Assembly (NCBI GenBank): GCA_016195685.1
Contig: JACPZE010000020.1
Coordinates: 21,725-85,724, forward strand
Reading direction: 5' to 3'
DNA: 64,000 nt
Origin: Candidatus Gottesmanbacteria bacterium
GTDB lineage: Bacteria; Patescibacteriota; Microgenomatia; 2-02-FULL-39-11
This document shows, in pieces, positions 3 to 60,043 of the stretch. Under the pieces are notes generated by a model, which saw nothing but the letters and a program-made list of their open reading frames with translations, had not been told where the DNA came from and searched no databases. The position numbers and the translations under genes were made by a program. Position 1 is the stretch's first letter. Each line of letters starts with the position of its first letter.

Positions 3-692
3 GATTTACTGGGCAAATTTGTTTATGGAATTGCAGAATTGCATAGAACAGAAATAAAAAATGCAAAATACATTGCTTGTGGTGGTTGTGAAGCTACGGT
101 ATCGATACTTAGTCTTTATCCGTTAGTGAAAAAAGGCCTGATAGATCTAAATAATATCATCATTGACGGGAAAATGAGCAGCAGTCAGGCCGGGAACAAG
201 CCTACTCTTTCTTCCCATCATGCGGAAAGAAGCAGAGTGGTACGGACTTATGCGCCATTGGGACACAGGCATACCGCCGAGATAGAGCAGGAATTAAGTT
301 TTGGAAACAAAAAAGCTTTTGTATCCGTAACTGCTACCAGTATTGAGATGGTTCGCGGACTATTAGTCACCATCCACACAAAAATATTAGATGGAGTGAC
401 AGAAAAAAATATTTGGTCGGCATACAGGGAAATTTATAAAAATGAACCCTTCATAAGAATTGTAAATGAAACTGAAGGAATCTATAGATACCCGGAGCCT
501 AAAATTTTGGAAGGAACGAACTATTGTGATATAGGCTTTGCGTTGGATTCCAAATCCAAACATCTGGTAGTGATCGGAGCGATAGATAATCTGGGGAAAG
601 GTACAGCAGGCCAAGCCGTGCAAGCGATGAATATAATGTGTGGATATCCCGAAACAACAGGGCTTACTTTCCCGGGTCTTCATCCAGTGTAA
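3..692 (+). CDS. argC: N-acetyl-gamma-glutamyl-phosphate reductase, C-terminal part (5' end outside window)
   Basis: The frame is open from the window edge. The translation has ArgC hallmarks (GHRHTAEIEQEL and C-terminal NLGKGTAGQAVQAMN). The ORF track starts at an internal Met at 39, but the frame continues upstream. Confidence 0.88.
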   Translation, partial: DLLGKFVYGIAELHRTEIKNAKYIACGGCEATVSILSLYPLVKKGLIDLNNIIIDGKMSSSQAGNKPTLSSHHAERSRVVRTYAPLGHRHTAEIEQELSFGNKKAFVSVTATSIEMVRGLLVTIHTKILDGVTEKNIWSAYREIYKNEPFIRIVNETEGIYRYPEPKILEGTNYCDIGFALDSKSKHLVVIGAIDNLGKGTAGQAVQAMNIMCGYPETTGLTFPGLHPV

Positions 693-695
693 AAT

Positions 696-1517
696 ATGAA
701 AAATGATTTGCAACTTATAAAAATCGGAGGAGGTCAAGATATAAATTGGGATTTTATAGCAGAGGATTTAAAACGCTTGAAAAAATTCATCATCATACAT
801 GGAGCAAATCATAAAATAACAGAAATTTCAAAAAAACTTGGAATTACCGAGAAAAAAATCATTTCTCCCAGCGGTTTTGTCAGCAGATATACGGATGAAA
901 AAGCTCTAGATGTATTTCTCATGATTTATGCGGGACTCGTGAATAAAAAATTAGTCGCATTGTTGCAAAAATATAAAATTAATGCTGTTGGATTAACCGG
1001 AATTGACGGTAGAATTTGGGAAGGAAAAAGAAAAAATATTATTTACTCGGTGGAAAACGGGAAAACTAAATTGATAAATGATAGTTTGACCGGTAATGTA
1101 GAAAAGATAAACACAAATCTGTTAAATTTACTGGTAAAAAACGGATTTGTTCCTGTTCTTTGCCCACCGGCCATAAGTTTTGATAATGAAATCATAAATG
1201 TAGATAACGATAGGGCGGCGGCAGTGCTGACAAAAAGTTTAAAAATTAAAGAAATGATTATGTTATTGGAAGCACCAGGATATTGCAAAGATTTAAAAGA
1301 TCCGAAATCAGTTGTATCAAAAATACCTTTCAAAAAATTGGATAGATTTATAAAAATTGCACAATCCGGCATGAAGAAAAAATTACTAGGGGTTAAGGAA
1401 GCTATGATTGGGGGTGTGGAGAAAGTTTATCTGGGTGACGGTAGAGTAAAAAATCCTATATCAAAAATATTAAACGGTGCAGGTACTCTTATCTTTAAGG
1501 AGTCAATCTATGAATGA
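696..1517 (+). CDS. argB: acetylglutamate kinase (amino-acid kinase family)
   Basis: Amino-acid kinase family signature (IKIGGG..., HGANHKI) and a length of about 273 aa. It is tightly packed between argC and argD. Confidence 0.88.
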   Translation: MKNDLQLIKIGGGQDINWDFIAEDLKRLKKFIIIHGANHKITEISKKLGITEKKIISPSGFVSRYTDEKALDVFLMIYAGLVNKKLVALLQKYKINAVGLTGIDGRIWEGKRKNIIYSVENGKTKLINDSLTGNVEKINTNLLNLLVKNGFVPVLCPPAISFDNEIINVDNDRAAAVLTKSLKIKEMIMLLEAPGYCKDLKDPKSVVSKIPFKKLDRFIKIAQSGMKKKLLGVKEAMIGGVEKVYLGDGRVKNPISKILNGAGTLIFKESIYE

Positions 1518-2661
1518 TAATCACAAATATTTATTACCAACCTATCCGGATAGAGGGATCAATATTATCCGAGGTGAAGGAGTGTATCTATATGATGTCA
1601 ACGGGAAAAAATATATAGATTTTGGCAGTAATTACGGGGTTTCTATTTTGGGTTACGGAAATAAAGTTATCCTATCGGCGCTTAAATCACAAATAGAGAA
1701 ACTTATAAATCTCCATGGAAGTCTGGGTAATCCGGTGCGCGATCAGGCAGCGAGAAAATTGGTAAATATGTGCGGGAAATATTACTCGCAAGTTTATTTT
1801 TGCAACTCCGGCACAGAAGCAATTGAAGCGGCTCTCAAATTTACCAAACTTACTAAACGCGGAAATCATATTATCGCCATGCAGCATAGTTATCACGGAA
1901 AAACATTGGGAGCGCTTTCTGTAACTGCGGGAGAAAAATACAGGGAACCTTTTACACCATTGATTTGGGACGTAAGTTTTGCGGATTTTGGAACGATCGA
2001 GAATCTAAAAAATTCAATAAAAAAAGATACAATAGCTATAATCATTGAGCCGGTGCAGGGAGAAGGGGGAATAAATCCATCCCCAAAAGGATTTTTAAAA
2101 GCAGTCAGGAAATTATGTGACCAAAATAATTTGCTTTTAATTATTGATGAAATACAGGCGGGACTCGGGAGAACAGGATCATTTCTGGTAAGCCAAAACG
2201 ATGGAATTAGTGCCGATATCTTATGTTTGGGGAAAGGATTGGCAGGCGGTATTCCCATCGGAGCTACAGTTGTATCAAAAAATGTAGCAGCTCATGTACC
2301 AGTACATATCCATACATCTACTTTTGGAGGAAACCCTTTGGCGATGAGCGGTATTTTGGCCACCTTAGAGTTTCTCTCCGATAAAAAAATTTACCGTCAT
2401 ATACAAGAAACAGGAGATTATTTCTTAAAAGAGCTTAAAAAAATTCGCCATCCGAAAATTATCGACGCAAGAGGAGTCGGACTTATGATTGCTCTTGAAC
2501 TTAGGGAAAATGCGACATGGTTATTAAAGTCACTTCAGGATAAAAATATCATAGCAATTCCAGCAGGAAGTAATGTTGTCCGATTTTTACCACCGTATTT
2601 AATTACCGAGAAAGAGATAGATGTTTTAATTTATGCACTTAAAGAAATTTTCGTAAAATAA
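1510..2661 (+). CDS. argD: acetylornithine/class III aminotransferase
   Basis: Class III PLP aminotransferase motifs are present. The ORF track start at 1477 lies inside argB. The ATG at 1510 is preceded by AAGGAG and overlaps the argB stop by 8 bp, so it is the likely true start. Confidence 0.88.
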   Translation: MNDNHKYLLPTYPDRGINIIRGEGVYLYDVNGKKYIDFGSNYGVSILGYGNKVILSALKSQIEKLINLHGSLGNPVRDQAARKLVNMCGKYYSQVYFCNSGTEAIEAALKFTKLTKRGNHIIAMQHSYHGKTLGALSVTAGEKYREPFTPLIWDVSFADFGTIENLKNSIKKDTIAIIIEPVQGEGGINPSPKGFLKAVRKLCDQNNLLLIIDEIQAGLGRTGSFLVSQNDGISADILCLGKGLAGGIPIGATVVSKNVAAHVPVHIHTSTFGGNPLAMSGILATLEFLSDKKIYRHIQETGDYFLKELKKIRHPKIIDARGVGLMIALELRENATWLLKSLQDKNIIAIPAGSNVVRFLPPYLITEKEIDVLIYALKEIFVK

Positions 2662-2663
2662 TT

Positions 2664-3347
2664 ATGTGCAGATTTTTACTCGTCAGGTCAAAAACGAAAA
2701 TCAAACTGGAAAAATTATTACACCAGTTTTCACAGATGAGCGAGAGAAGCCGTGCACCCGATGGTGACTGGCAAGGTGACGGGTGGGGAATAGCGATCAA
2801 AACTCAAAGCTGGAAAATTTATAAATCATTAAATCCCATTTGGGAAGATAAAGATACTTTTAATATATTTCCGGAAACGAATATTTTTGTGGTTCATGCC
2901 AGGAGTGCGGGGTTTCCGCAAGATAGAGGTATTATTGAATATAATGAGCCTTACGTTTCTGATGATTTATGTTTTGTTTTTAATGGAATGTTAAAAGGAG
3001 TGAATATCGCGAGACAACTTGAAGGAAAAATAGGGGCACAAAAAATATTTTCTCTGATACAAAATGTCATCCTGAGCGAATGTAGTGAGTTAAAGGACCC
3101 CCCGCGAATAGAGGAAGTCCTACGTATTGTTGATCAACTCATTGTTAATAACTCTAAAAAGGTTATAGGAATGAATATTGGTCTTGTAAAAGATGATAAA
3201 TTTAATGTTCTTTGTGAATATGACAATAACGATGAATATTTTAGTCTACGATATTACCAAGATGATCAAGTATCGCTTGTATGTTCTGAAGAAATTGGGG
3301 AATACGATTGGAAAATGATGAAAAAAGGGGAAATATTAGTTCTATAG
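2664..3347 (+). CDS. class II (Ntn-type) glutamine amidotransferase-like protein
   Basis: Met-Cys N-terminus (MCRFLL), the nucleophile position of class II GATases. The overall pattern is YafJ/EgtC-like. It follows argD after a 2-bp gap. Confidence 0.65.
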   Translation: MCRFLLVRSKTKIKLEKLLHQFSQMSERSRAPDGDWQGDGWGIAIKTQSWKIYKSLNPIWEDKDTFNIFPETNIFVVHARSAGFPQDRGIIEYNEPYVSDDLCFVFNGMLKGVNIARQLEGKIGAQKIFSLIQNVILSECSELKDPPRIEEVLRIVDQLIVNNSKKVIGMNIGLVKDDKFNVLCEYDNNDEYFSLRYYQDDQVSLVCSEEIGEYDWKMMKKGEILVL

Positions 3348-3349
3348 CC

Positions 3350-3740
3350 TATTGACGGCTAGATCAAAAATTGGTATATTGAATTAAGTTAATAAAAGCG
3401 TTGATGGGGACGAGTAAAACATTTGTGTCTTTCAGAGAAGGGTAATCGGTGAGAAGTCCCAAAGACAATTGTTTGTATCTCCAAGACCCTGGAGCTGCCG
3501 GAAGAAATCAGTATTTACTGAAAGTAAATCCGAGTCGGGTGCGCCCGTAATAGCACTAAAGTGTCACTGTTCCGATTTTATCGGAAATCAAGCACTTGAA
3601 CGAGGAGTAATTTACAAAGTGACACGCATGTTTTGCGTGTTTTTGTTTATTTAATTACTCGAAATGAGGTGGTACCATGGTTCGACTTCGCTCACCACGA
3701 GCTGTCAACCGTCCTTATATTTGGACGGTTTTTTTGTGGA
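3350..3740 (+). ncRNA. long structured 5' leader or small RNA with two tandem intrinsic terminators; type unresolved
   Basis: A ~400-nt noncoding gap. The first hairpin, ACACGC-N7-GCGTGT with a U-tract, lies at 3622-3652. The second, AACCGTCC-N8-GGACGGTT with TTTTTTT, lies at 3707-3737. This is directly upstream of a CDS with a GGAGG ribosome-binding site. The ORF-track ORFs here (3469-3654 and 3677 start) run through terminators. Confidence 0.35.
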
Positions 3741-3748
3741 GGAAAAAT

Positions 3749-5098
3749 ATGCTAGTAGAAAGACGAATTTTAATTACAACACCAAGAGAAGGATTACAGC
3801 AAGCCGGTGCTTTTCCAAAAGATGGTAGATTAGGGATAAACGATCCAAATCTTTTACCTCCTGCTCAAATTATTGAAGCAGGAGCTATTAATCTGCTAAA
3901 AGATTTGATTACCAGAAGAGATTTGATGGTGGAATTACCTAATCCAATTTCATGTCCATCTGCGGCAAAAATGGTGAATAGAATCCTAACTACTGCCCAA
4001 ACATTTGGAGTATCTGATAGAGTTCCGGTACATACGAGGATGACAAAAAAAGATTTTAATTTGGCTGTAGTATGTGGAGCAACAGCAGTACATCTTTATG
4101 GTAATTCTTCAGATTTAGCTGGAAGAAAAGGTCAATCTATTGAGAAACTTACAGATAGTTTGGAAGAAATAGCAGATGATGCTTACAAAAGTGGAGTTAA
4201 TCACCTGCGGGCCAGTTTAGAGCAAGCAACTGCTACTCCAATTGATAAAATTGTTCAATTTGTTACAAAGATTAAAGAAATTAACGGAAAGTATCCAAGG
4301 AAAGTTATAACAGCGATAGGACTTCCTGATACAAATGGACTGGCAACTCCAGATCAATATCAAAAAATATTAACTAAAGAAGTAACTCAATTGATAAGAG
4401 ATTCAGGGTTAACTCTTTTTATACATTTACATGATGATGGTAATAATGCTTTAGACAATGCAAAAACTATTATGGAAATTGCAAAAGCAGAAAATATTTC
4501 AGTAGTAGTTGAAACTGTTCCTAAGGAATACCCGGGAGAGAGAGTAGGAATACGCCCTTGGTATAGCGATTTAGCAGAGCTCGGTTTTCCAGGTGAATTG
4601 CCTAAAAGCGCCACTGAGATATTAGAAGGAAGCTCATGGGTTTTAAAATATCCTGAATTAAGAGATATAGCGAAATTAACAAATACCGCGGGTGTTCATA
4701 CGGATGATATGGAACGATATGCGAATGGTAATCACGGGATTTTCCCCTCACCGGGTCTATATTCCATTATGGGTGCAAAAAATTTTGGTTTCTTGCAGGA
4801 ACATACATTGCCAATTGATATAGGAAAAGTAAGTACAATTGAGGTATTGAGATCTGCTGCATTAATTGGGCGTGAATTAGCTGTACAATATGGCAATCAG
4901 TCGCAAGCAGTAGCAATCGCGTTAGCGGAATTAGCCTTTAATAAACCCGATCTTGTTCAATCAGTGTCATCTCGTTTTAATAATCACAATATATGGTTAG
5001 AAGATGATGTTCCTGATTTAAGAGTAATTTGTGATCTATTGCATAAAATTATTTATGATAAATGGAAAATGAATATTAATTTTCAAAAAAGAGTATGA
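3749..5098 (+). CDS. HMGL-like (DRE-TIM metallolyase superfamily) protein with a divergent N-terminal motif
   Basis: HLHDDGNNALDNA matches the HxHNDxGxAxAN motif of the IPMS/homocitrate synthase/HMG-CoA lyase family. The N-terminal LRDGEQ equivalent is degenerate (TPREGLQQ). The start is reassigned to the ATG at 3749, which has a GGAGG ribosome-binding site. The ORF-track start at 3677 lies inside the terminator. Confidence 0.65.
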   Translation: MLVERRILITTPREGLQQAGAFPKDGRLGINDPNLLPPAQIIEAGAINLLKDLITRRDLMVELPNPISCPSAAKMVNRILTTAQTFGVSDRVPVHTRMTKKDFNLAVVCGATAVHLYGNSSDLAGRKGQSIEKLTDSLEEIADDAYKSGVNHLRASLEQATATPIDKIVQFVTKIKEINGKYPRKVITAIGLPDTNGLATPDQYQKILTKEVTQLIRDSGLTLFIHLHDDGNNALDNAKTIMEIAKAENISVVVETVPKEYPGERVGIRPWYSDLAELGFPGELPKSATEILEGSSWVLKYPELRDIAKLTNTAGVHTDDMERYANGNHGIFPSPGLYSIMGAKNFGFLQEHTLPIDIGKVSTIEVLRSAALIGRELAVQYGNQSQAVAIALAELAFNKPDLVQSVSSRFNNHNIWLEDDVPDLRVICDLLHKIIYDKWKMNINFQKRV

Positions 5099-5155: not shown

Positions 5156-7456
5156 ATGTTCTGGGCCGATAAAATTGCAAAAAATATAATTGATTCAAGA
5201 AAATATACACCTTATTGGGTCGACGATATGAAGACTCCATCGGGAAGAATTCACGTGGGATCTTTGCGTGGAGTACTCATCCATGAACTAGTCTGGAGGG
5301 CATTAAAAAATGCCGGAAAAGAAGCGACTTTTACCTATGTCTTTGACGATCATGATCCCATGGATGAGTTGCCTATATATCTGGAAGAAGAAAAATGGAG
5401 TAAATACCTGGGCCAACCTCTATATACTGTTCCATCGCCGGATGGAAAAGCAGAAAACTATGCAAAATATTTTGCAGATGAATTTACAGAAGTGTTCAAC
5501 AAGCTAGGGTGCCGTCCCAAAATTCTTTGGACAAGTGAATTATATAAGAAAGGTATGATGAATGATTTGATTAAAGTATGTTTAGATAAAACAGAATTAA
5601 TCAGAAAAATATATGAAGAATTGTACAAAAAAAAGATGGTATCTGATTGGTATCCTTTCCAAGTAGTTTGTCCAAAGTGTGGGAAAGAATCTACAACCAG
5701 AGTAAATAATTGGGACGGTGAAAATGTCAGTTTTGTATGCAAAATTGATGCAGTTGTTTGGACAAAAGGTTGTGGCTTTTACGGATCAGTTTCACCATTT
5801 AGTGGTGATGGAAAATTTGCAGGTAAACTTTCATGGAAAATAGAATGGCCGGTGAAGTGGCAAGTCATTGGAATCACAATTGAAGGCGCTGGTAAAGATC
5901 ACATGAGTGCAGGAGGTTCCCATGATGTGGCAAAACTGATCTGTGAAAGAGTTCTAAAATCGGCGGTTCCATACCAGATAGCTTATGAATTTTTCCTAAT
6001 CGGTGGCAAAAAGATGTCTTCCTCAAAAGGATTGGGATCGTCAGCCAAAGAAGTATCAGAAATTATCCCGCCATACCTTGGACGTTTCCTTTTTACCCGT
6101 ACAGATTATCGGGAAGCTATAGAATTTGATCCGATGGGAACGATGGCTATACCGGATCTGTTTGATGAATATGATAGATGCTGGCAAGCATACAATACCG
6201 GATCAGATGAGAATCTATCCAGTATTTTTGAGTATTCACAGATAGATGATATACCTGGGAAAAATCCAACATTATTTCTCCCGAGATTTCGCGATATTGC
6301 AAATTTCGCACAACTTCCAAATGTCGATTTATGGCAAAAACTTCAACAGATTAAAGGAACTGAATTAACAGAATTCGAGGACGATATTATACGTGAACGA
6401 CTTACATTTGCATTTATATGGCTTAGTAAATATGCCCCGGATGAGTATAGGTATCAAATATCGATTAAATCAATTGAAGAAATAAATTTAACTAGCAAAC
6501 AATGGGAATTCTTAAATGTTCTTTCAGATATTTGGGCGAATGTTAAGGATCCTGAAGAATTACAATCTAAAATATTCCAATTGGCTAAAGCCAAAGATAT
6601 GAATCATAAAGAGGCTTTTAATACTTTGTATACAGTTTTGCTTGATAAACCACATGGTCCACGTGCAGGGTGGCTTCTTAAAAAATTTCCATCAGAAGTA
6701 GTTATCAAGAGGTTAACACTTAATAGACATCAAAAAGTTAGAAAACAAGCAAGAACGGTAAATACTATTTCCCGTCCAGACTTGTTCACAATTGATAAAG
6801 AGGTTAAAAGTAAATATCCGTCTGTATCTATAGGAATTGCAATAATCAAAGGAGTAAATATCAAGAAATCAGATCCATTACTTGAGAAAGCAAAAGAAGA
6901 ATTTTTGAAAAGTTTAGAAAACCTTACAACAGAAGAAATAGGTAAATATCCACAGCTAATCAGTTACAGAAAATTATATAGAGAGATGGGAATAGATTGG
7001 CACTCAAGACGTCCATCTCCTGAGGCCTTACTGCGAAGAGTAATTTTGAAAAAAGGATTATATTCTATCAATACCTGTGTAGACGCATATAACCTAGTAG
7101 TGATGAAACATAGAGTTTCAGTGGGCGCATTTGATTTGGAGTGTGTAAGATTTCCGACTGTCTTAAGATATGCAGATGAAGGAGACGAAATATTATTATT
7201 AGGTGATAAAGAACCGACTAAATATACTTCAAAAGAAATTGCTTATTATGACAAAGTAGGCGGATATAATATCGACTTTAATTATCGTGATGCACAAAGA
7301 ACTATGGTAACGGAAAAAACTAAAAATATCTGGATAAATGTAGATGGTGTTTATGATATCAGTCCGGAATTGGTAGAAAAGTCACTTCGGGAATCAATTG
7401 AAATAATAGTTAAATATTGTGGAGGGGAAGTAGAGTTTGAGGGAGTAGTAAGATAA
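5156..7456 (+). CDS. lysS: class I lysyl-tRNA synthetase fused to a C-terminal B3/4-like (PheT editing-type) domain
   Basis: The HIGH-type motif (GRIHVGSLRG) and KMSSSKG (KMSKS) place it in class I LysRS. The C-terminal ~240 aa (from about 6716) show a B3/4 domain pattern (NTCVDAYNLVVMKHRVSVGAFDLE...GDEILLLGDKEP). Confidence 0.8.
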   Translation: MFWADKIAKNIIDSRKYTPYWVDDMKTPSGRIHVGSLRGVLIHELVWRALKNAGKEATFTYVFDDHDPMDELPIYLEEEKWSKYLGQPLYTVPSPDGKAENYAKYFADEFTEVFNKLGCRPKILWTSELYKKGMMNDLIKVCLDKTELIRKIYEELYKKKMVSDWYPFQVVCPKCGKESTTRVNNWDGENVSFVCKIDAVVWTKGCGFYGSVSPFSGDGKFAGKLSWKIEWPVKWQVIGITIEGAGKDHMSAGGSHDVAKLICERVLKSAVPYQIAYEFFLIGGKKMSSSKGLGSSAKEVSEIIPPYLGRFLFTRTDYREAIEFDPMGTMAIPDLFDEYDRCWQAYNTGSDENLSSIFEYSQIDDIPGKNPTLFLPRFRDIANFAQLPNVDLWQKLQQIKGTELTEFEDDIIRERLTFAFIWLSKYAPDEYRYQISIKSIEEINLTSKQWEFLNVLSDIWANVKDPEELQSKIFQLAKAKDMNHKEAFNTLYTVLLDKPHGPRAGWLLKKFPSEVVIKRLTLNRHQKVRKQARTVNTISRPDLFTIDKEVKSKYPSVSIGIAIIKGVNIKKSDPLLEKAKEEFLKSLENLTTEEIGKYPQLISYRKLYREMGIDWHSRRPSPEALLRRVILKKGLYSINTCVDAYNLVVMKHRVSVGAFDLECVRFPTVLRYADEGDEILLLGDKEPTKYTSKEIAYYDKVGGYNIDFNYRDAQRTMVTEKTKNIWINVDGVYDISPELVEKSLRESIEIIVKYCGGEVEFEGVVR

Positions 7457-8338
7457 ATGTATAGATTTTTTAATAGACACAAACTATTTCTTACAGATGT
7501 AGGTTTAATCTACGCAGCTGCAATTTGGGGAGCCACTTTTTATATAGTAAAAGATAGTCTACGATTTATAAATCCTCTGGCTCAATTGGGGTACAGATTT
7601 TTGTTTGCAAGTTTGGTTCTGGGGATTTTTCTTAAGATCAAGCATAAAAAGCTAATTTCAAATTTTAAGGAAGGATTTATTTTGGGAGTTTTAGTTTGGA
7701 TTCTTTTTGTACCTCAGACAATCGGATTAAAATATACTACCGCATCAAATTCAGGATTCATAACAGGACTTTTCGTAGTATTCGTGCCTATATTTTCTCT
7801 ACTTTTATTTAAGGCAATACCGTCATTTCAGAAAATTACAGCTATTTTACTTGCAACTAGCGGGCTTTATTTTCTCACCGGTGGGTTAAAAGAGTTAAAT
7901 ATCGGTGATGTTATTACTCTCATTGCTGCTATGGCATATGCTCTGCATATCCTGGTTTCCGGAGTGTTTATGAAAAGAAAAATAGATCCGTATGTCAATA
8001 CTTTTCAGCAATTTTTCACTATGGGAGCTTTGAGTCTTTCTACCGGATTATTATTTGGTCAGTCAATATTTGTTCAATCTATGAACAGTTTATGGATTAT
8101 AATTTTTCTCGCTCTTTTTCCCTCACTTTCTGGATTTGTGATACAGATGGTTGCTTTGCAATATACTGCTCCGGTAAAAGTTGCTATAATATTTACACTT
8201 GAACCCGTATTTGCAGCGATTTTTGCCTGGACACTGGGAGGTGAAAAATTCTTGCCTATAAATGCATTCGGAGGATTATTAATAGTATTTGCAATGATAA
8301 TCTCTGAATTGCCAATGACAAAAAGTGAAAAAATATGA
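7457..8338 (+). CDS. EamA/DMT family permease
   Basis: About 10 predicted TM helices in two halves, typical of the drug/metabolite transporter fold. Confidence 0.7.
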   Translation: MYRFFNRHKLFLTDVGLIYAAAIWGATFYIVKDSLRFINPLAQLGYRFLFASLVLGIFLKIKHKKLISNFKEGFILGVLVWILFVPQTIGLKYTTASNSGFITGLFVVFVPIFSLLLFKAIPSFQKITAILLATSGLYFLTGGLKELNIGDVITLIAAMAYALHILVSGVFMKRKIDPYVNTFQQFFTMGALSLSTGLLFGQSIFVQSMNSLWIIIFLALFPSLSGFVIQMVALQYTAPVKVAIIFTLEPVFAAIFAWTLGGEKFLPINAFGGLLIVFAMIISELPMTKSEKI

Positions 8339-8901
8339 TCTCTAGACAACAAGCTTGGGAATTATTGAATAACCATATGAAGAGTCAGAATCTGATAAGA
8401 CACTGTTTAGCAGTTGAGGCAGTGATAAAGGCATTAGCACGATACTTCAAAGAAGATGAGGAAGTGTGGGGAATAGTGGGACTTCTCCATGATGGAGATT
8501 ATGAGGAAGTGGAGAAAGATCCCTCTCAACATACTTTAAAAATGCATCAGTGGCTTACAGATGTTGGAGAAACAGACCCACGTATTTTAGAAGCAATTCT
8601 TTCTCATAACTTTGCTCATACAGGACAAAATTCTCCCAAAAATAATCTGGAATGGTCGCTTTACTGTTGTGACGAATTGACTGGTCTAATTGTTGCAGTT
8701 ACTTTAGTCAGACCGGAAAAAAAGTTATCAGCGGTATCTGTAGAGTCAGTGATGAAAAAATGGGATATAAAACAGTTTGCTGCCGGAGCCAAACGTGAAC
8801 AGATAGCGCATTGTCAGGAAAAACTGGGGATTAAACTTGCTGATTTCATTAGTATTGCTTTAAAAGCAATGCAGTATAAATCCGAAGAATTAGGATTGTA
8901 A
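8335..8901 (+). CDS. HD-domain phosphohydrolase
   Basis: Contains the HD motif (LLHDGDY) in an otherwise all-alpha protein of 188 aa. Confidence 0.65.
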   Translation: MISRQQAWELLNNHMKSQNLIRHCLAVEAVIKALARYFKEDEEVWGIVGLLHDGDYEEVEKDPSQHTLKMHQWLTDVGETDPRILEAILSHNFAHTGQNSPKNNLEWSLYCCDELTGLIVAVTLVRPEKKLSAVSVESVMKKWDIKQFAAGAKREQIAHCQEKLGIKLADFISIALKAMQYKSEELGL

Positions 8902-57667: not shown

Positions 57668-60043
57668 ATGAAAATAAAATTTAGAATAGGATATTTTATA
57701 TTCGGCTGTTTACTTGGATTAATTACATTTTTAAACCAAGCCAAACCGGTTGAAGCATTTAGTTTTTCCTTCCTCAAGTTTCCAGATATACCTAGTTTAC
57801 TTCGACTGATTTCTTTTCCAAACTTTCCACCTCTTAGACCTTTACCAACGATTAAACCTTTACCTACACTTCCACCTCTTCGGTCCATCACCAATCCTTT
57901 TGCCTCTCCAACTCCAACTCCGAGTTTAACTCCTACGATGACTCCCACTCGTACTCCAACTCCTGCTCCGACACTTACTCCTAGTTCGACGCCAACGTTA
58001 ACCCCAACTCTCACTCCTACTTTAGCTCCCACCCTCACACCAACTAATACTCCAACACTGACACCTACTAGTACTCCTACCCCGACTGATACCCCCCCAA
58101 TACCCACTCCTACTCCTACAAAAACTCCTACCCCTACACCGACGTTAACGCCTAGTCCAACAGATACGCCTATTCCTACGATGACACCTACTTTGACGCC
58201 TACTCCTACCAATACTCCTACAACAACTCCTACACCAACTCTAACGCCTATTCCAACCGATACCCTAACCCCGACACCATCAAATACACCTACACCAACT
58301 ATCACGCCCACAGATACACTTACTCCAACGCCTACAGAAACACCTATACCGACGTCTACACCGGTACCAACCGATACTCCAACCCCAATCCTAACTCCAA
58401 CTCCGACTAATACTCCTACTCTCACGCCTTCTGATACTCCTACACCTACATTAACTCCAGTTCCAACAGATACACCTACACCAACACCTAGTGATACTCC
58501 TACGCCTACATCGACTCCTATTCCAACAGATACACCAATTCTCAGTCCGACTGATACTCCTACACCCACTATTACTCCAACTCCCAATTTATCAGCGAGT
58601 TTAGTGGCTTATTGGAAATTAAACGAAGGCAGTGGGAATTCTATTCCCGATGATTCTGGTAATAATAAAAGACTCCATGTAAACAATAATTTACCTCCAG
58701 TCTGGTCGAATGATGTACCTCCCAATAACTGGGGAGATACTTTTTCTTACGAAGTACAAAATTCTGCTAACAACTTTTTATACAATGAAAATTTACATAC
58801 CAGCGACTATTGTTTCCCCACCGCATACACTATCGAAGGTTGGTTTAAAGTTTTATCACCACCGATAAATGAAGGAACTTTGATATCTAAATTTGCAGGT
58901 CAAGGATGGTTACTTTGGACTGGTGGTTCTGCAAATCCTTTGGAGTTTAGGCAATATAATCCTTTTTCTCCCATAGTTTCTAATGGTTCTTTGACGTTGC
59001 TTGACGAGTGGCATCACCTCGCTATGGTTTGGGATGGTTTAACTCGTCAGTGGTACATAGATGGTGTGCTTACCAATAGTGATGGCAATAATACTGCTCC
59101 TGGTTGTAATTCAGGATTATTGAATATAGGCGCATATAATAATGGAACTTCTATACCTAATATGCGGGTATCTGAGGTAAGAATATATGATACTGCGCTT
59201 TCCCAAGGACAGATAGAGGCTGACACGGGGGTGTTGTTGCCCACTCTTACACCTTCTCCTACTCCTAGCGATACTCCTACACCTACCTTAACGCCTATAC
59301 CCACAGACACTCCTACACCTACAGATACCCCTGTTCCGACTCCTACAGATACCCCAATCCCGACTCCGTCAGACACACCAACTCCTACCATTACGCCTAT
59401 ACCTACTGTCACACCTTCGCCCACAGACACGCCTATACCTACCCTGACACCATTACCTACAGATACTCCTACTCCCACTCTTTCACCCACCCCTTCTGAT
59501 ACTCCTACACCTACTCCCACTCCAACGCCGCCAAGTGTTGTAATTAACGAAATCATGTGGCCGGGGAGTAGCGCAAGTAGTGCAGATGAATGGATTGAGT
59601 TAAAAAATACTACTTCGAGTCCGATAGATTTGACTAACTGGGTTGTAGAAAAGTTAGGAAATTCTGGCAGTCCTAATATTACCATTCCATCAAGTACAAT
59701 TGGCGCAAATGATTATTTCCTCATAGCGAATTATTTGGAAACTGATAGTCATTCCGTGCTGAATGTTCATCCTGATTTTCAAACAGCCTCTATAAGTTTA
59801 GACAATGCAGGAGAGCAGTTAGTATTAAAAAATAATCTAGGAGTTATTATAGATACAGCCAATGGAAATAGTGCATGGTTTAATGGAGTCAATGGCAACA
59901 ACATAGTTCCAGATAAATCTATGGCTAGAAAAGATCCACCGAATGATGGTACAAACGCATCTAACTGGTTTACTTCTCAAGGGTCGGCCAATTTAGATCC
60001 AGGTGCAACGGAATCGGCAACTCCTAAGAGTAATAATATTTAA
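57668..60043 (+). CDS. secreted Pro/Thr-repeat protein with LamG-like (concanavalin A-like lectin) domain and C-terminal lamin tail domain (LTD)
   Basis: Signal peptide. (TPTPTxTP)n occupies about 250 aa. LamG_3 pattern [22 protein letters not shown]...[10 protein letters not shown]...WYIDGVL at about 58604-59228. A second PT tract follows. LTD motif VVINEIMW...DEWIELKN...DLTNWVV from about 59534. Confidence 0.72.
57900..58590 (+). repeat. Pro/Thr codon tandem repeat tract (low-complexity coding DNA)
   Basis: Reiterated actcctacNccNac units. A second tract lies at about 59225-59530. These tracts generate the spurious antisense GV-rich ORFs. Confidence 0.7.

Follow-up and report, generated by a model that had tools for sequence, protein, structure and literature searches.

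A CtdA-type B3/B4 module appended to a class I lysyl-tRNA synthetase of Candidatus Gottesmanbacteria, a putative tethered editing deacylase

We analysed a stretch of 64,000 nucleotides (nt; hereafter the window) from a Candidatus Gottesmanbacteria bacterium (assembly GCA_016195685.1, contig JACPZE010000020.1, positions 21,725 to 85,724), in which a single gene joins a class I lysyl-tRNA synthetase (LysRS-I) to a C-terminal module of the B3/B4 fold. The module (positions 6779-7453; amino acids (aa) 542-766) is a putative aminoacyl-tRNA deacylase of the type represented by CtdA, a free-standing canavanyl-tRNAArg deacylase. Its pocket is nearly invariant among its LysRS-fused relatives, and the same module is found on lysyl-tRNA synthetases of the non-homologous class II (LysRS-II). 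The reading that we favour, and hold with moderate confidence, is that of a tethered post-transfer editing deacylase that would clear a non-lysine amino acid from tRNALys. All features described below lie on the forward (+) strand of the window and are numbered from its first nucleotide; proteins and loci recovered in our searches are cited by P and L numbers, respectively.

Results

The gene (positions 5156-7456) is one open reading frame (ORF) of 766 aa plus a stop codon, running from an ATG start to a TAA stop, after which the ATG of the following gene comes immediately. It is matched by the Pfam families tRNA-synt_1f (PF01921; aa 2-362, E 6.9e-88) and B3_4 (PF03483). Residues 1-521 (positions 5156-6718) form a complete and canonical LysRS-I body: the NCBIfam equivalog TIGR00467 (lysS_arch) scores 353.6 bits against a cutoff of 147.55, with aa 1-521 covering profile positions 1-512 of 515, and the enzyme of P. 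horikoshii, the only solved class I LysRS (1IRX, chain 1irx_A), aligns over residues 3-519 of 523 to aa 2-520 (E 7.4e-68). The likeness is collinear throughout and includes the C-terminal anticodon-binding region. A preliminary description, made from the letters of the window, had assigned the N-terminal ~520 aa to class I LysRS on the basis of two signature motifs, and both are found: GRIHVGS (aa 30-36, positions 5243-5263), of the class I HIGH type, and KMSSSKG (aa 286-292, positions 6011-6031), of the class I KMSKS type. Residues H33, G35, K286, S288, S290 and G292 are invariant in an alignment of 46 homologues.

Since 1irx_A is aligned end to end, the additional 245 residues of the window protein start exactly where the canonical enzyme, at about residue 523, stops; the architecture is indeed not the textbook one, as had been remarked in that description. 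An identical protein is deposited at NCBI under the name 'lysine--tRNA ligase [Candidatus Gottesmanbacteria bacterium]'. From these matches, the best explanation is that the gene product is a fully functional class I LysRS plus an appended module, and lysylation activity is predicted.

The preliminary description had placed the C-terminal part in the B3/4 fold. Pfam B3_4 matches aa 604-756 over profile positions 2-174 of 174 (E 3.5e-21; 76.0 bits, gathering cutoff 29.3), and the two quoted stretches are present, NTCVDAYNLVVMKHRVSVGAFDLE from aa 639 and GDEILLLGDKEP at aa 676-687. The fold was thus correctly recognised; of the two relatives proposed for it, the PheT-type domain of phenylalanyl-tRNA synthetase (PheRS) beta and the free-standing trans-editing proteins, only the second proved close. 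The best match of aa 522-766 among PDB sequences is CtdA (9f7e, E 1.1e-5; 9mkl), with PheRS beta behind (E 0.01-0.2). The structure prediction and superposition proposed in the same description pointed in the same direction. An AlphaFold2 (AF2) model of the module, built from a 40-sequence alignment, has a predicted local distance difference test score (pLDDT) of 94.8 and a predicted template modelling score (pTM) of 0.90; Foldseek against the PDB retrieves CtdA 9mkl and 9f7e first (E ~1e-17, template modelling score (TM) 0.77-0.83), and the superposition has a root-mean-square deviation (rmsd) of ~3.0 Å over 231-234 columns, which is essentially the whole CtdA chain. Chains of PheRS beta share the same basic fold and are much more distant (TMq 0.54-0.59, rmsd 5.6-7.9 Å). 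According to the 2025 CtdA work, a helical insert sets CtdA apart from the PheRS editing domain; the modelled module carries this CtdA-specific insert, whereas PheRS beta has an insert type of its own. As modelled, the module is a complete CtdA-type B3/B4 protein that is not PheRS-like in detail.

Body and module are connected by a basic linker, NRHQKVRKQARTVNTISRP (aa 523-541, positions 6722-6778), which is poorly conserved in the homologue alignment and predicted to be flexible. In the AF2 model of the full-length protein both parts are confident (mean pLDDT 90.1), aa 526-533 of the linker fall below a pLDDT of 50, and the pTM is 0.67, versus 0.90 for the module alone. Together, the predicted disorder of the linker and the free-standing relatives (see below) that share the pocket signature indicate that the module would be a deacylase in its own right, flexibly tethered, as opposed to a rigidly docked editing domain.

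In CtdA the pocket consists of N105, G116, E118, C166, Q173 and I189; the variants N105A, G116H/W and Q173G are inactive, C166 tunes specificity, Glu is tolerated at position 173, and C166 and Q173 together govern specificity and activity (PMC12449066). Residue equivalents were taken from an alignment of 353 full modules to the family hidden Markov model (HMM) together with CtdA segments. The window module has N646, G657, F659, N705, D712 and N728 at the six pocket positions, with D707 at the position of CtdA R168. N646 ends the motif NTCVDAYN (aa 639-646, positions 7070-7093) and corresponds to CtdA N105 and to N254 of Escherichia coli PheRS beta. In the motif SVGAFD (aa 655-660, positions 7118-7135), G657 is the counterpart of CtdA G116, where a small residue is required, and F659 stands in place of E118. 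The pocket wall NIDFNYRDAQRT (aa 705-716, positions 7268-7303) contributes N705 (C166), D707 (R168), N709 (N170), D712 (Q173) and T716 (T177), and N728 aligns with I189. The motifs VD-YN and N-[YW]-R-x-x-x-R-T, the Asn at 105 and the small residue at 116 are thus common to CtdA and the window module, which are ~20% identical, whereas the specificity residues differ (E118F, C166N, R168D, Q173D, I189N).

These features are not peculiar to the window. Among 190 LysRS-I-fused modules, the position of N105 is Asn in 189, that of G116 is Gly in 188 and that of E118 is Phe in 186; position 166 is Asn in 179, 168 is Asp in 182, 173 is Asp in 189 and 189 is Asn in 180. In LysRS-II-fused modules the catalytic Asn is present in 26 of 26 and the equivalent of D712 in 23 of 26. 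The catalytic Asn and a small residue at 116 are consequently kept in about 99% of LysRS-fused modules, and the specificity signature F118/N166/D168/D173/N189, unlike that of CtdA, is conserved to the same degree. The residues by which CtdA-1 proteins recognise canavanine (E118, C166, Q/E173, I189) were replaced by F659, N705, D712 and N728 in the window module. A PheRS-type Tyr-editing site was ruled out, as the editing residues H265 and G318 of PheRS correspond to G657 and D712 and the catalytic Asn (N254) alone is shared. The pair of Asp residues replacing CtdA Arg168 and Gln173 may be only a hint that the substrate has a cationic side chain.

The fusion is widespread among relatives of the window protein. 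Its 120 best homologues (54-73% identity, ~740-790 aa) all have both Pfam domains. A scan of GTDB with one genome per species and the module alone as query yielded 41 loci, of which 35 hold a complete LysRS-I+module ORF and one more such an ORF cut by a contig end, four hold LysRS-II+module, and one is an undeterminable fragment. The survey of LysRS-I sequences suggested in the preliminary description has thereby returned the same fusion many times over. The named genomes that bear it belong to Gottesmanbacteria, Levybacteria/Levyibacteriota, Microgenomates and Patescibacteria; several other labels, 'uncultured Gammaproteobacteria' among them, look like errors of automatic labelling. Chloroflexota, namely Anaerolineae and Aggregatilineales, supply more distant LysRS-I+B3/4 proteins, whose modules are 28-35% identical to that of the window. 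One fusion protein from Roizmanbacteria (P0069) has 1077 aa, ~300 aa more than its relatives, and may contain an insertion or an intein.

Across the homologues retrieved with the full-length query, mean identity to the window protein is 71.9% in the module and 57.7% in the synthetase body; in 115 of the 119 it is the module that is more similar. The GTDB loci, a biased set because they were retrieved with module peptides, show 67.0% versus 51.5%, with the module higher in 35 of 35. Conservation beyond that of the attached enzyme is not what one would expect of an appendage in decay or of mere decoration.

The fusion is therefore real and conserved, and no artefact of assembly or gene calling. 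One might suppose that a sequencing error or misassembly had joined two neighbouring genes, all the more since at locus L042 the module (P0127) is predicted as a gene of its own, which shares 14 nt with the end of a class II lysS of 455 aa. The window ORF is unbroken, with neither the internal stop nor the frameshift that the preliminary description had named as a possible flaw. The same single-ORF architecture occurs in independent species genomes, 35 times complete with class I and four times with class II, and in hundreds of database proteins. The uninterrupted ORF and the recurrence of the architecture in dozens of independent genomes rule out such an artefact, and we regard its remaining probability as negligible.

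The association of the module with class II enzymes came to light through several matches that start within a class II LysRS, at its C-terminal end (motif 3, ...FPTLRP), and run on into the module; their N-terminal parts align to the last position of the NCBIfam lysS_bact/PRK00484 profiles. In the GTDB scan such LysRS-II+module fusions are represented by L034, L035, L037 and L041, and there are many more among database proteins. L035 reaches 523 bits on TIGR00499 (cutoff 427.6), and L037 lies just below the LysRS-II cutoffs (TIGR00499 414.6 vs 427.6; PRK00484 457.4 vs 468) with LysRS-II remaining the family that it matches best over the full profile. In P0259 and P0369, Pfam recognises the class II D/K/N catalytic domain and the OB anticodon domain. 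At L042, secA lies downstream of the lysS and module genes, as it does in the window and at many class I loci.

Modules fused to the two classes do not form separate groups. In a bootstrapped neighbour-joining (NJ) tree of modules, that of P0121, a LysRS-II fusion from Gottesmanbacteria, pairs with that of the LysRS-I fusion P0034 at 100% bootstrap, and the pair nests with the window module at 91%; the P0121 module is 89% identical to that of P0034 and 65% identical to the nearest other class II-fused module. A mixed clade of nine taxa (five class II-fused, three class I-fused, one free) has 99% support, and a core 'Lys-type' clade of 32 taxa (18 class I-fused, 13 class II-fused, one free) has 79%. 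The simplest reading of this tree is that the module stayed in place, or at least associated, while the LysRS body was swapped between non-homologous classes more than once. The intermixing implies that the role of the module is bound up with lysine and tRNALys, whichever catalytic scaffold carries it.

When 1.84 billion representatives were searched exhaustively by phmmer with the module as query, 1953 matched at E <= 1e-3 and 661 at E <= 1e-10. According to Pfam annotation, the family extends beyond LysRS fusions to free-standing proteins of ~220-240 aa and to fusions with other synthetases. In seven proteins (P0281, P0292, P0306, P0313, P0316, P0348 and P0376) an N-terminal module precedes arginyl-tRNA synthetase (ArgRS). 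These modules have the CtdA pocket N-G-E-C-R-N-E/Q-T-V/I, as in the proven canavanyl-tRNAArg deacylase. The ArgRS fusions would be a cis version of that deacylase, and one of them (P0281) has two B3_4 stretches; a description of module-ArgRS fusions was not found in open-access PubMed Central (PMC) and bioRxiv. Fusions with tyrosyl-tRNA synthetase (TyrRS) were found as well: P0357 carries an N-terminal module, and P0367 combines a YbaK-type tRNA_edit domain, the module and TyrRS. P0367 thus has two different putative editing domains on one TyrRS. TyrRS-fused modules display a third pocket signature (H118, T166, N168, V170, Q173, P189). Pocket variation that follows the synthetase partner in this manner is what would be expected under amino-acid-specific editing.

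Further domains accompany the module in some class II fusions: P0254 consists of LysRS-II, tRNA_bind, the module and an HD domain, and P0247 of LysRS-II, the module and DUF2000. DUF2000 (PF09391) follows the B3/4 module in other LysRS-II fusions too (P0219, P0221) and is a candidate functional partner.

Among the free-standing relatives, P0171 (58% identical) and P0173 (62%) have the same pocket signature as the window module and no synthetase nearby. A LysRS gene beside a free-standing relative was found for P0127 only, the neighbours of P0171, P0173, P0236 and P0267 being unrelated. The nearest free-standing relatives include one Bathyarchaeia cluster. The module lineage may be, or be sister to, the uncharacterised 'CtdA-2' clade.

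Genomic neighbourhood

Neither a tRNA gene nor a second LysRS or second module was found in the window. The gene that abuts the fusion (positions 7457-8338) encodes an EamA-family transporter with a weak match to carboxylate/amino acid/amine transporters. It is followed by a gene for an HD-domain protein of 188 aa (positions 8335-8901), which is a linked partner of the module. A homologue of this protein is encoded just downstream of the fusion at 17 of the 41 GTDB loci (L001, L003, L004, L006-L008, L010-L013, L028, L031, L034 and L036-L039), including the class II fusions L034 and L037. In P0231 and P0254 an HD domain follows the module within one protein, and the HD protein of the window is homologous to it from end to end (50% identity, E 4e-66, and 37%, E 3e-28, respectively). 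In the window the EamA gene separates the fusion from the HD gene, and in other genomes fusion and HD gene are adjacent. No solved relative of the HD protein was found by sequence; one idea is that it may be a phosphohydrolase acting on nucleotides such as diadenosine tetraphosphate (Ap4A) or on the 3' end of tRNA.

Discussion

The analysis leads us to favour post-transfer editing as the function of the module. The LysRS body would charge tRNALys, and the tethered module would then sample the 3' aminoacyl end, before or just after release of the product. It would hydrolyse the ester bond if the attached amino acid were a near-cognate other than lysine that fits the pocket, and lysine itself would be rejected by the pocket formed by N646, G657, F659, N705, D707, D712 and N728. 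We infer hydrolytic activity, tRNALys as the carrier and rejection of lysine from the conserved pocket, from the conservation of the module in excess of that of the body, and from its presence on both classes of LysRS. The preliminary description had left open whether the module serves in tRNA anchoring or in proofreading; the same three observations argue for proofreading, and anchoring is less well supported.

Several points weigh against this interpretation. The only members of the family that have been assayed are CtdA-1 proteins. The module trails the C-terminal region of LysRS-I, beyond the anticodon-binding domain, and its docking in the AF2 model is not confident (pTM 0.67). Beyond the shallow mixed clades and the 79% core clade, bootstraps in the NJ tree are too low at the deep nodes. 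The signature common to class I and class II fusions stems partly from shared ancestry of the modules and not from independent convergence. Nor is the match between pocket and partner absolute, as three LysRS-II fusions have pockets of the Arg/CtdA type or near to that of CtdA (NGECRNETV, NGDCANETV and NGECSNETV). Two of them, P0369 and P0301, score 534 and 555 bits and are bona fide class II LysRS; the third, P0300, consists of an N-terminal module and the start of a LysRS-II. The module is C-terminal in one of these proteins and N-terminal in two. LysRS has recruited at least two lineages of the module. As regards possible substrates, ornithine is reportedly not charged by LysRS-I (PMC8001834), and class II LysRS removes ornithine (Orn), homocysteine (Hcy) and homoserine (Hse) before transfer (PMC7373986). 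The candidacy of ornithine as a substrate common to both LysRS classes is weakened by these two reports.

A non-catalytic role, in which hydrolysis has been lost or is not used and the module only raises the affinity for tRNALys, as tRNA-binding domains appended to other synthetases do, would agree with the basic character of the linker and with the PheRS precedent, where the B3/4 fold contacts the acceptor end of the tRNA. For PheRS, R244-C75 is mentioned in the CtdA paper (PMC12449066). A mere anchor would, however, hardly keep the Asn that is essential in CtdA and the whole pocket near-invariant, nor be more conserved than the enzyme body. It would be redundant in P0254, which has a dedicated tRNA_bind domain besides the module, and anchoring of a synthetase is impossible for the close relatives that are free-standing. 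Pockets that vary with the synthetase partner also fit amino-acid recognition better than generic binding of tRNA, and we consider anchoring an unlikely explanation.

Defence against an antimetabolite is really a sub-case of post-transfer editing that differs in the nature of the substrate: the module would clear tRNALys charged with a lysine analogue from the environment or from a host. Thialysine (S-(2-aminoethyl)-L-cysteine, AEC) and oxalysine are candidate analogues. Bacteria of the candidate phyla radiation (CPR) are thought to depend on hosts and on scavenged metabolites, and the transporter gene whose ATG abuts the LysRS stop is of the EamA amino-acid/amine type. The closest characterised relative, CtdA, is itself such a defence enzyme (PMC10018355, PMC12449066). 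Near-universal presence of the fusion in a whole large lineage, with a module that is more conserved than the body, nevertheless fits a constant threat better than an occasional toxin, and genes for biosynthesis or catabolism of an analogue were not seen nearby; a specific defence function therefore appears rather unlikely to us. Still less probable, in our estimation, is another hydrolytic or regulatory role exerted with the HD protein, such as controlled turnover of Lys-tRNALys, or action on D-aminoacyl-tRNA, on a non-tRNA lysyl ester or on an adenylate-derived product. Conserved adjacency to or fusion with an HD phosphohydrolase-type domain and with DUF2000 is no feature of known editing systems, and the Arg-type pocket of some LysRS-II enzymes could be read in the same sense. 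On the other hand, PheRS beta B3/B4 and CtdA, the members of the fold that have been characterised, are both deacylases of L-aminoacyl-tRNAs carrying near-cognates, and in CtdA selection disfavours the wasteful hydrolysis of cognate product.

Comparison with known systems helps to place the post-transfer editing that we favour. CtdA shares with the window module the fold over its whole length, the helical insert included, and an association with a synthetase for a basic amino acid; CtdA is a stand-alone protein of ~230 aa, whereas the window module is fused in cis after LysRS-I. As the partner is LysRS and not ArgRS, canavanyl-tRNAArg cannot be assumed to be the substrate, and given this partner and the pocket residues its hydrolysis by the window module is not expected. 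The module would work most like CtdA, yet it is no CtdA, having neither the canavanine residues nor the free-standing state. PheRS beta B3/B4, which hydrolyses Tyr-tRNAPhe and m-Tyr-tRNAPhe, has in common with it PF03483, the basic fold, the cis-acting mode and the Asn of the catalytic water (N254). Its editing domain is situated between B1/B2 and B5 of PheT, which is not the case for the window module, and the PheRS beta profile TIGR00472 gives only a weak partial match to the window protein (19.2 bits, cutoff 402.65). A single deacylase fold that occurs both free and appended, with specificity set by changes in the pocket, is also familiar from AlaX with alanyl- and threonyl-tRNA synthetases (AlaRS/ThrRS) and from INS/YbaK/ProXp with prolyl-tRNA synthetase (ProRS). 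Those domains are of a different fold and none is known on LysRS; unlike them, the lineage of the window module is present on two non-homologous synthetases of the same amino-acid specificity.

No editing domain is described for either class of LysRS in a synthetase review and in the AARS Online domain catalogue, where the active site and, in class II, also pre-transfer cyclisation are given as the source of LysRS fidelity. The CtdA papers do not mention fusions to synthetases, and a prior description of a LysRS-B3/4 fusion was not found in open-access PMC and bioRxiv, although the architecture becomes visible in deposited proteins by running Pfam. What is new here is thus a known deacylase fold, in a known cis mode, on a synthetase not known to have one and serving both LysRS classes.

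LysRS is the only synthetase that occurs in both structural classes, and a conserved deacylase on it would open a new branch of translational quality control and imply a problem of mischarging on tRNALys that has so far gone unrecognised. The class swaps would amount to a natural experiment in which the function of the module follows the amino acid and the tRNA and not the catalytic scaffold. If tRNALys editing is indeed the function, free-standing proteins resembling CtdA-2 gain a predicted substrate class, X-tRNALys, and the question left open by the 2025 CtdA work, namely the role of CtdA-like proteins that do not act on canavanine, becomes a directly testable hypothesis. CtdA-type modules are appended to ArgRS and TyrRS too. 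Tentatively, and with somewhat more doubt than conviction, we propose that the module is a post-transfer editing domain dedicated to lysine decoding, the first of its kind, kept through swaps of LysRS class and working with the HD hydrolase in a hitherto unrecognised quality-control system for lysine, and that it is part of a general ArgRS/LysRS/TyrRS cis-editing cassette of uncultivated lineages. As the organisms that carry the fusion are uncultivated, recombinant proteins are needed for testing.

Other features of the window

Directly upstream of the LysRS gene lies a LysW-type (alpha-aminoadipate) cluster for lysine/ornithine biosynthesis (positions 39-5098). It comprises argC/lysY, cut by the start of the window, a lysJ/argD-type transaminase, a GAT-like ORF of 227 aa, a [LysW]-aminoadipate kinase (294 bits, cutoff 223) and a divergent HMGL protein that is weakly homocitrate-synthase-like. 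Such a cluster is unexpected in a CPR genome of supposedly minimal biosynthesis. The lysZ-lysJ-GAT arrangement upstream of the fusion was seen in the window, L003 and L032 only, and the cluster was dropped as a general clue to function, its association with the fusion being limited to these three.

Further downstream of the HD gene, the window encodes a spermidine-synthase-like protein and SecA. A gene at positions 57668-60043 codes for a protein of 791 aa with Laminin_G_3 and Lamin-tail domains. Between positions 58000 and 60000 the GC skew is -0.31, strongly negative compared with the rest of the window.

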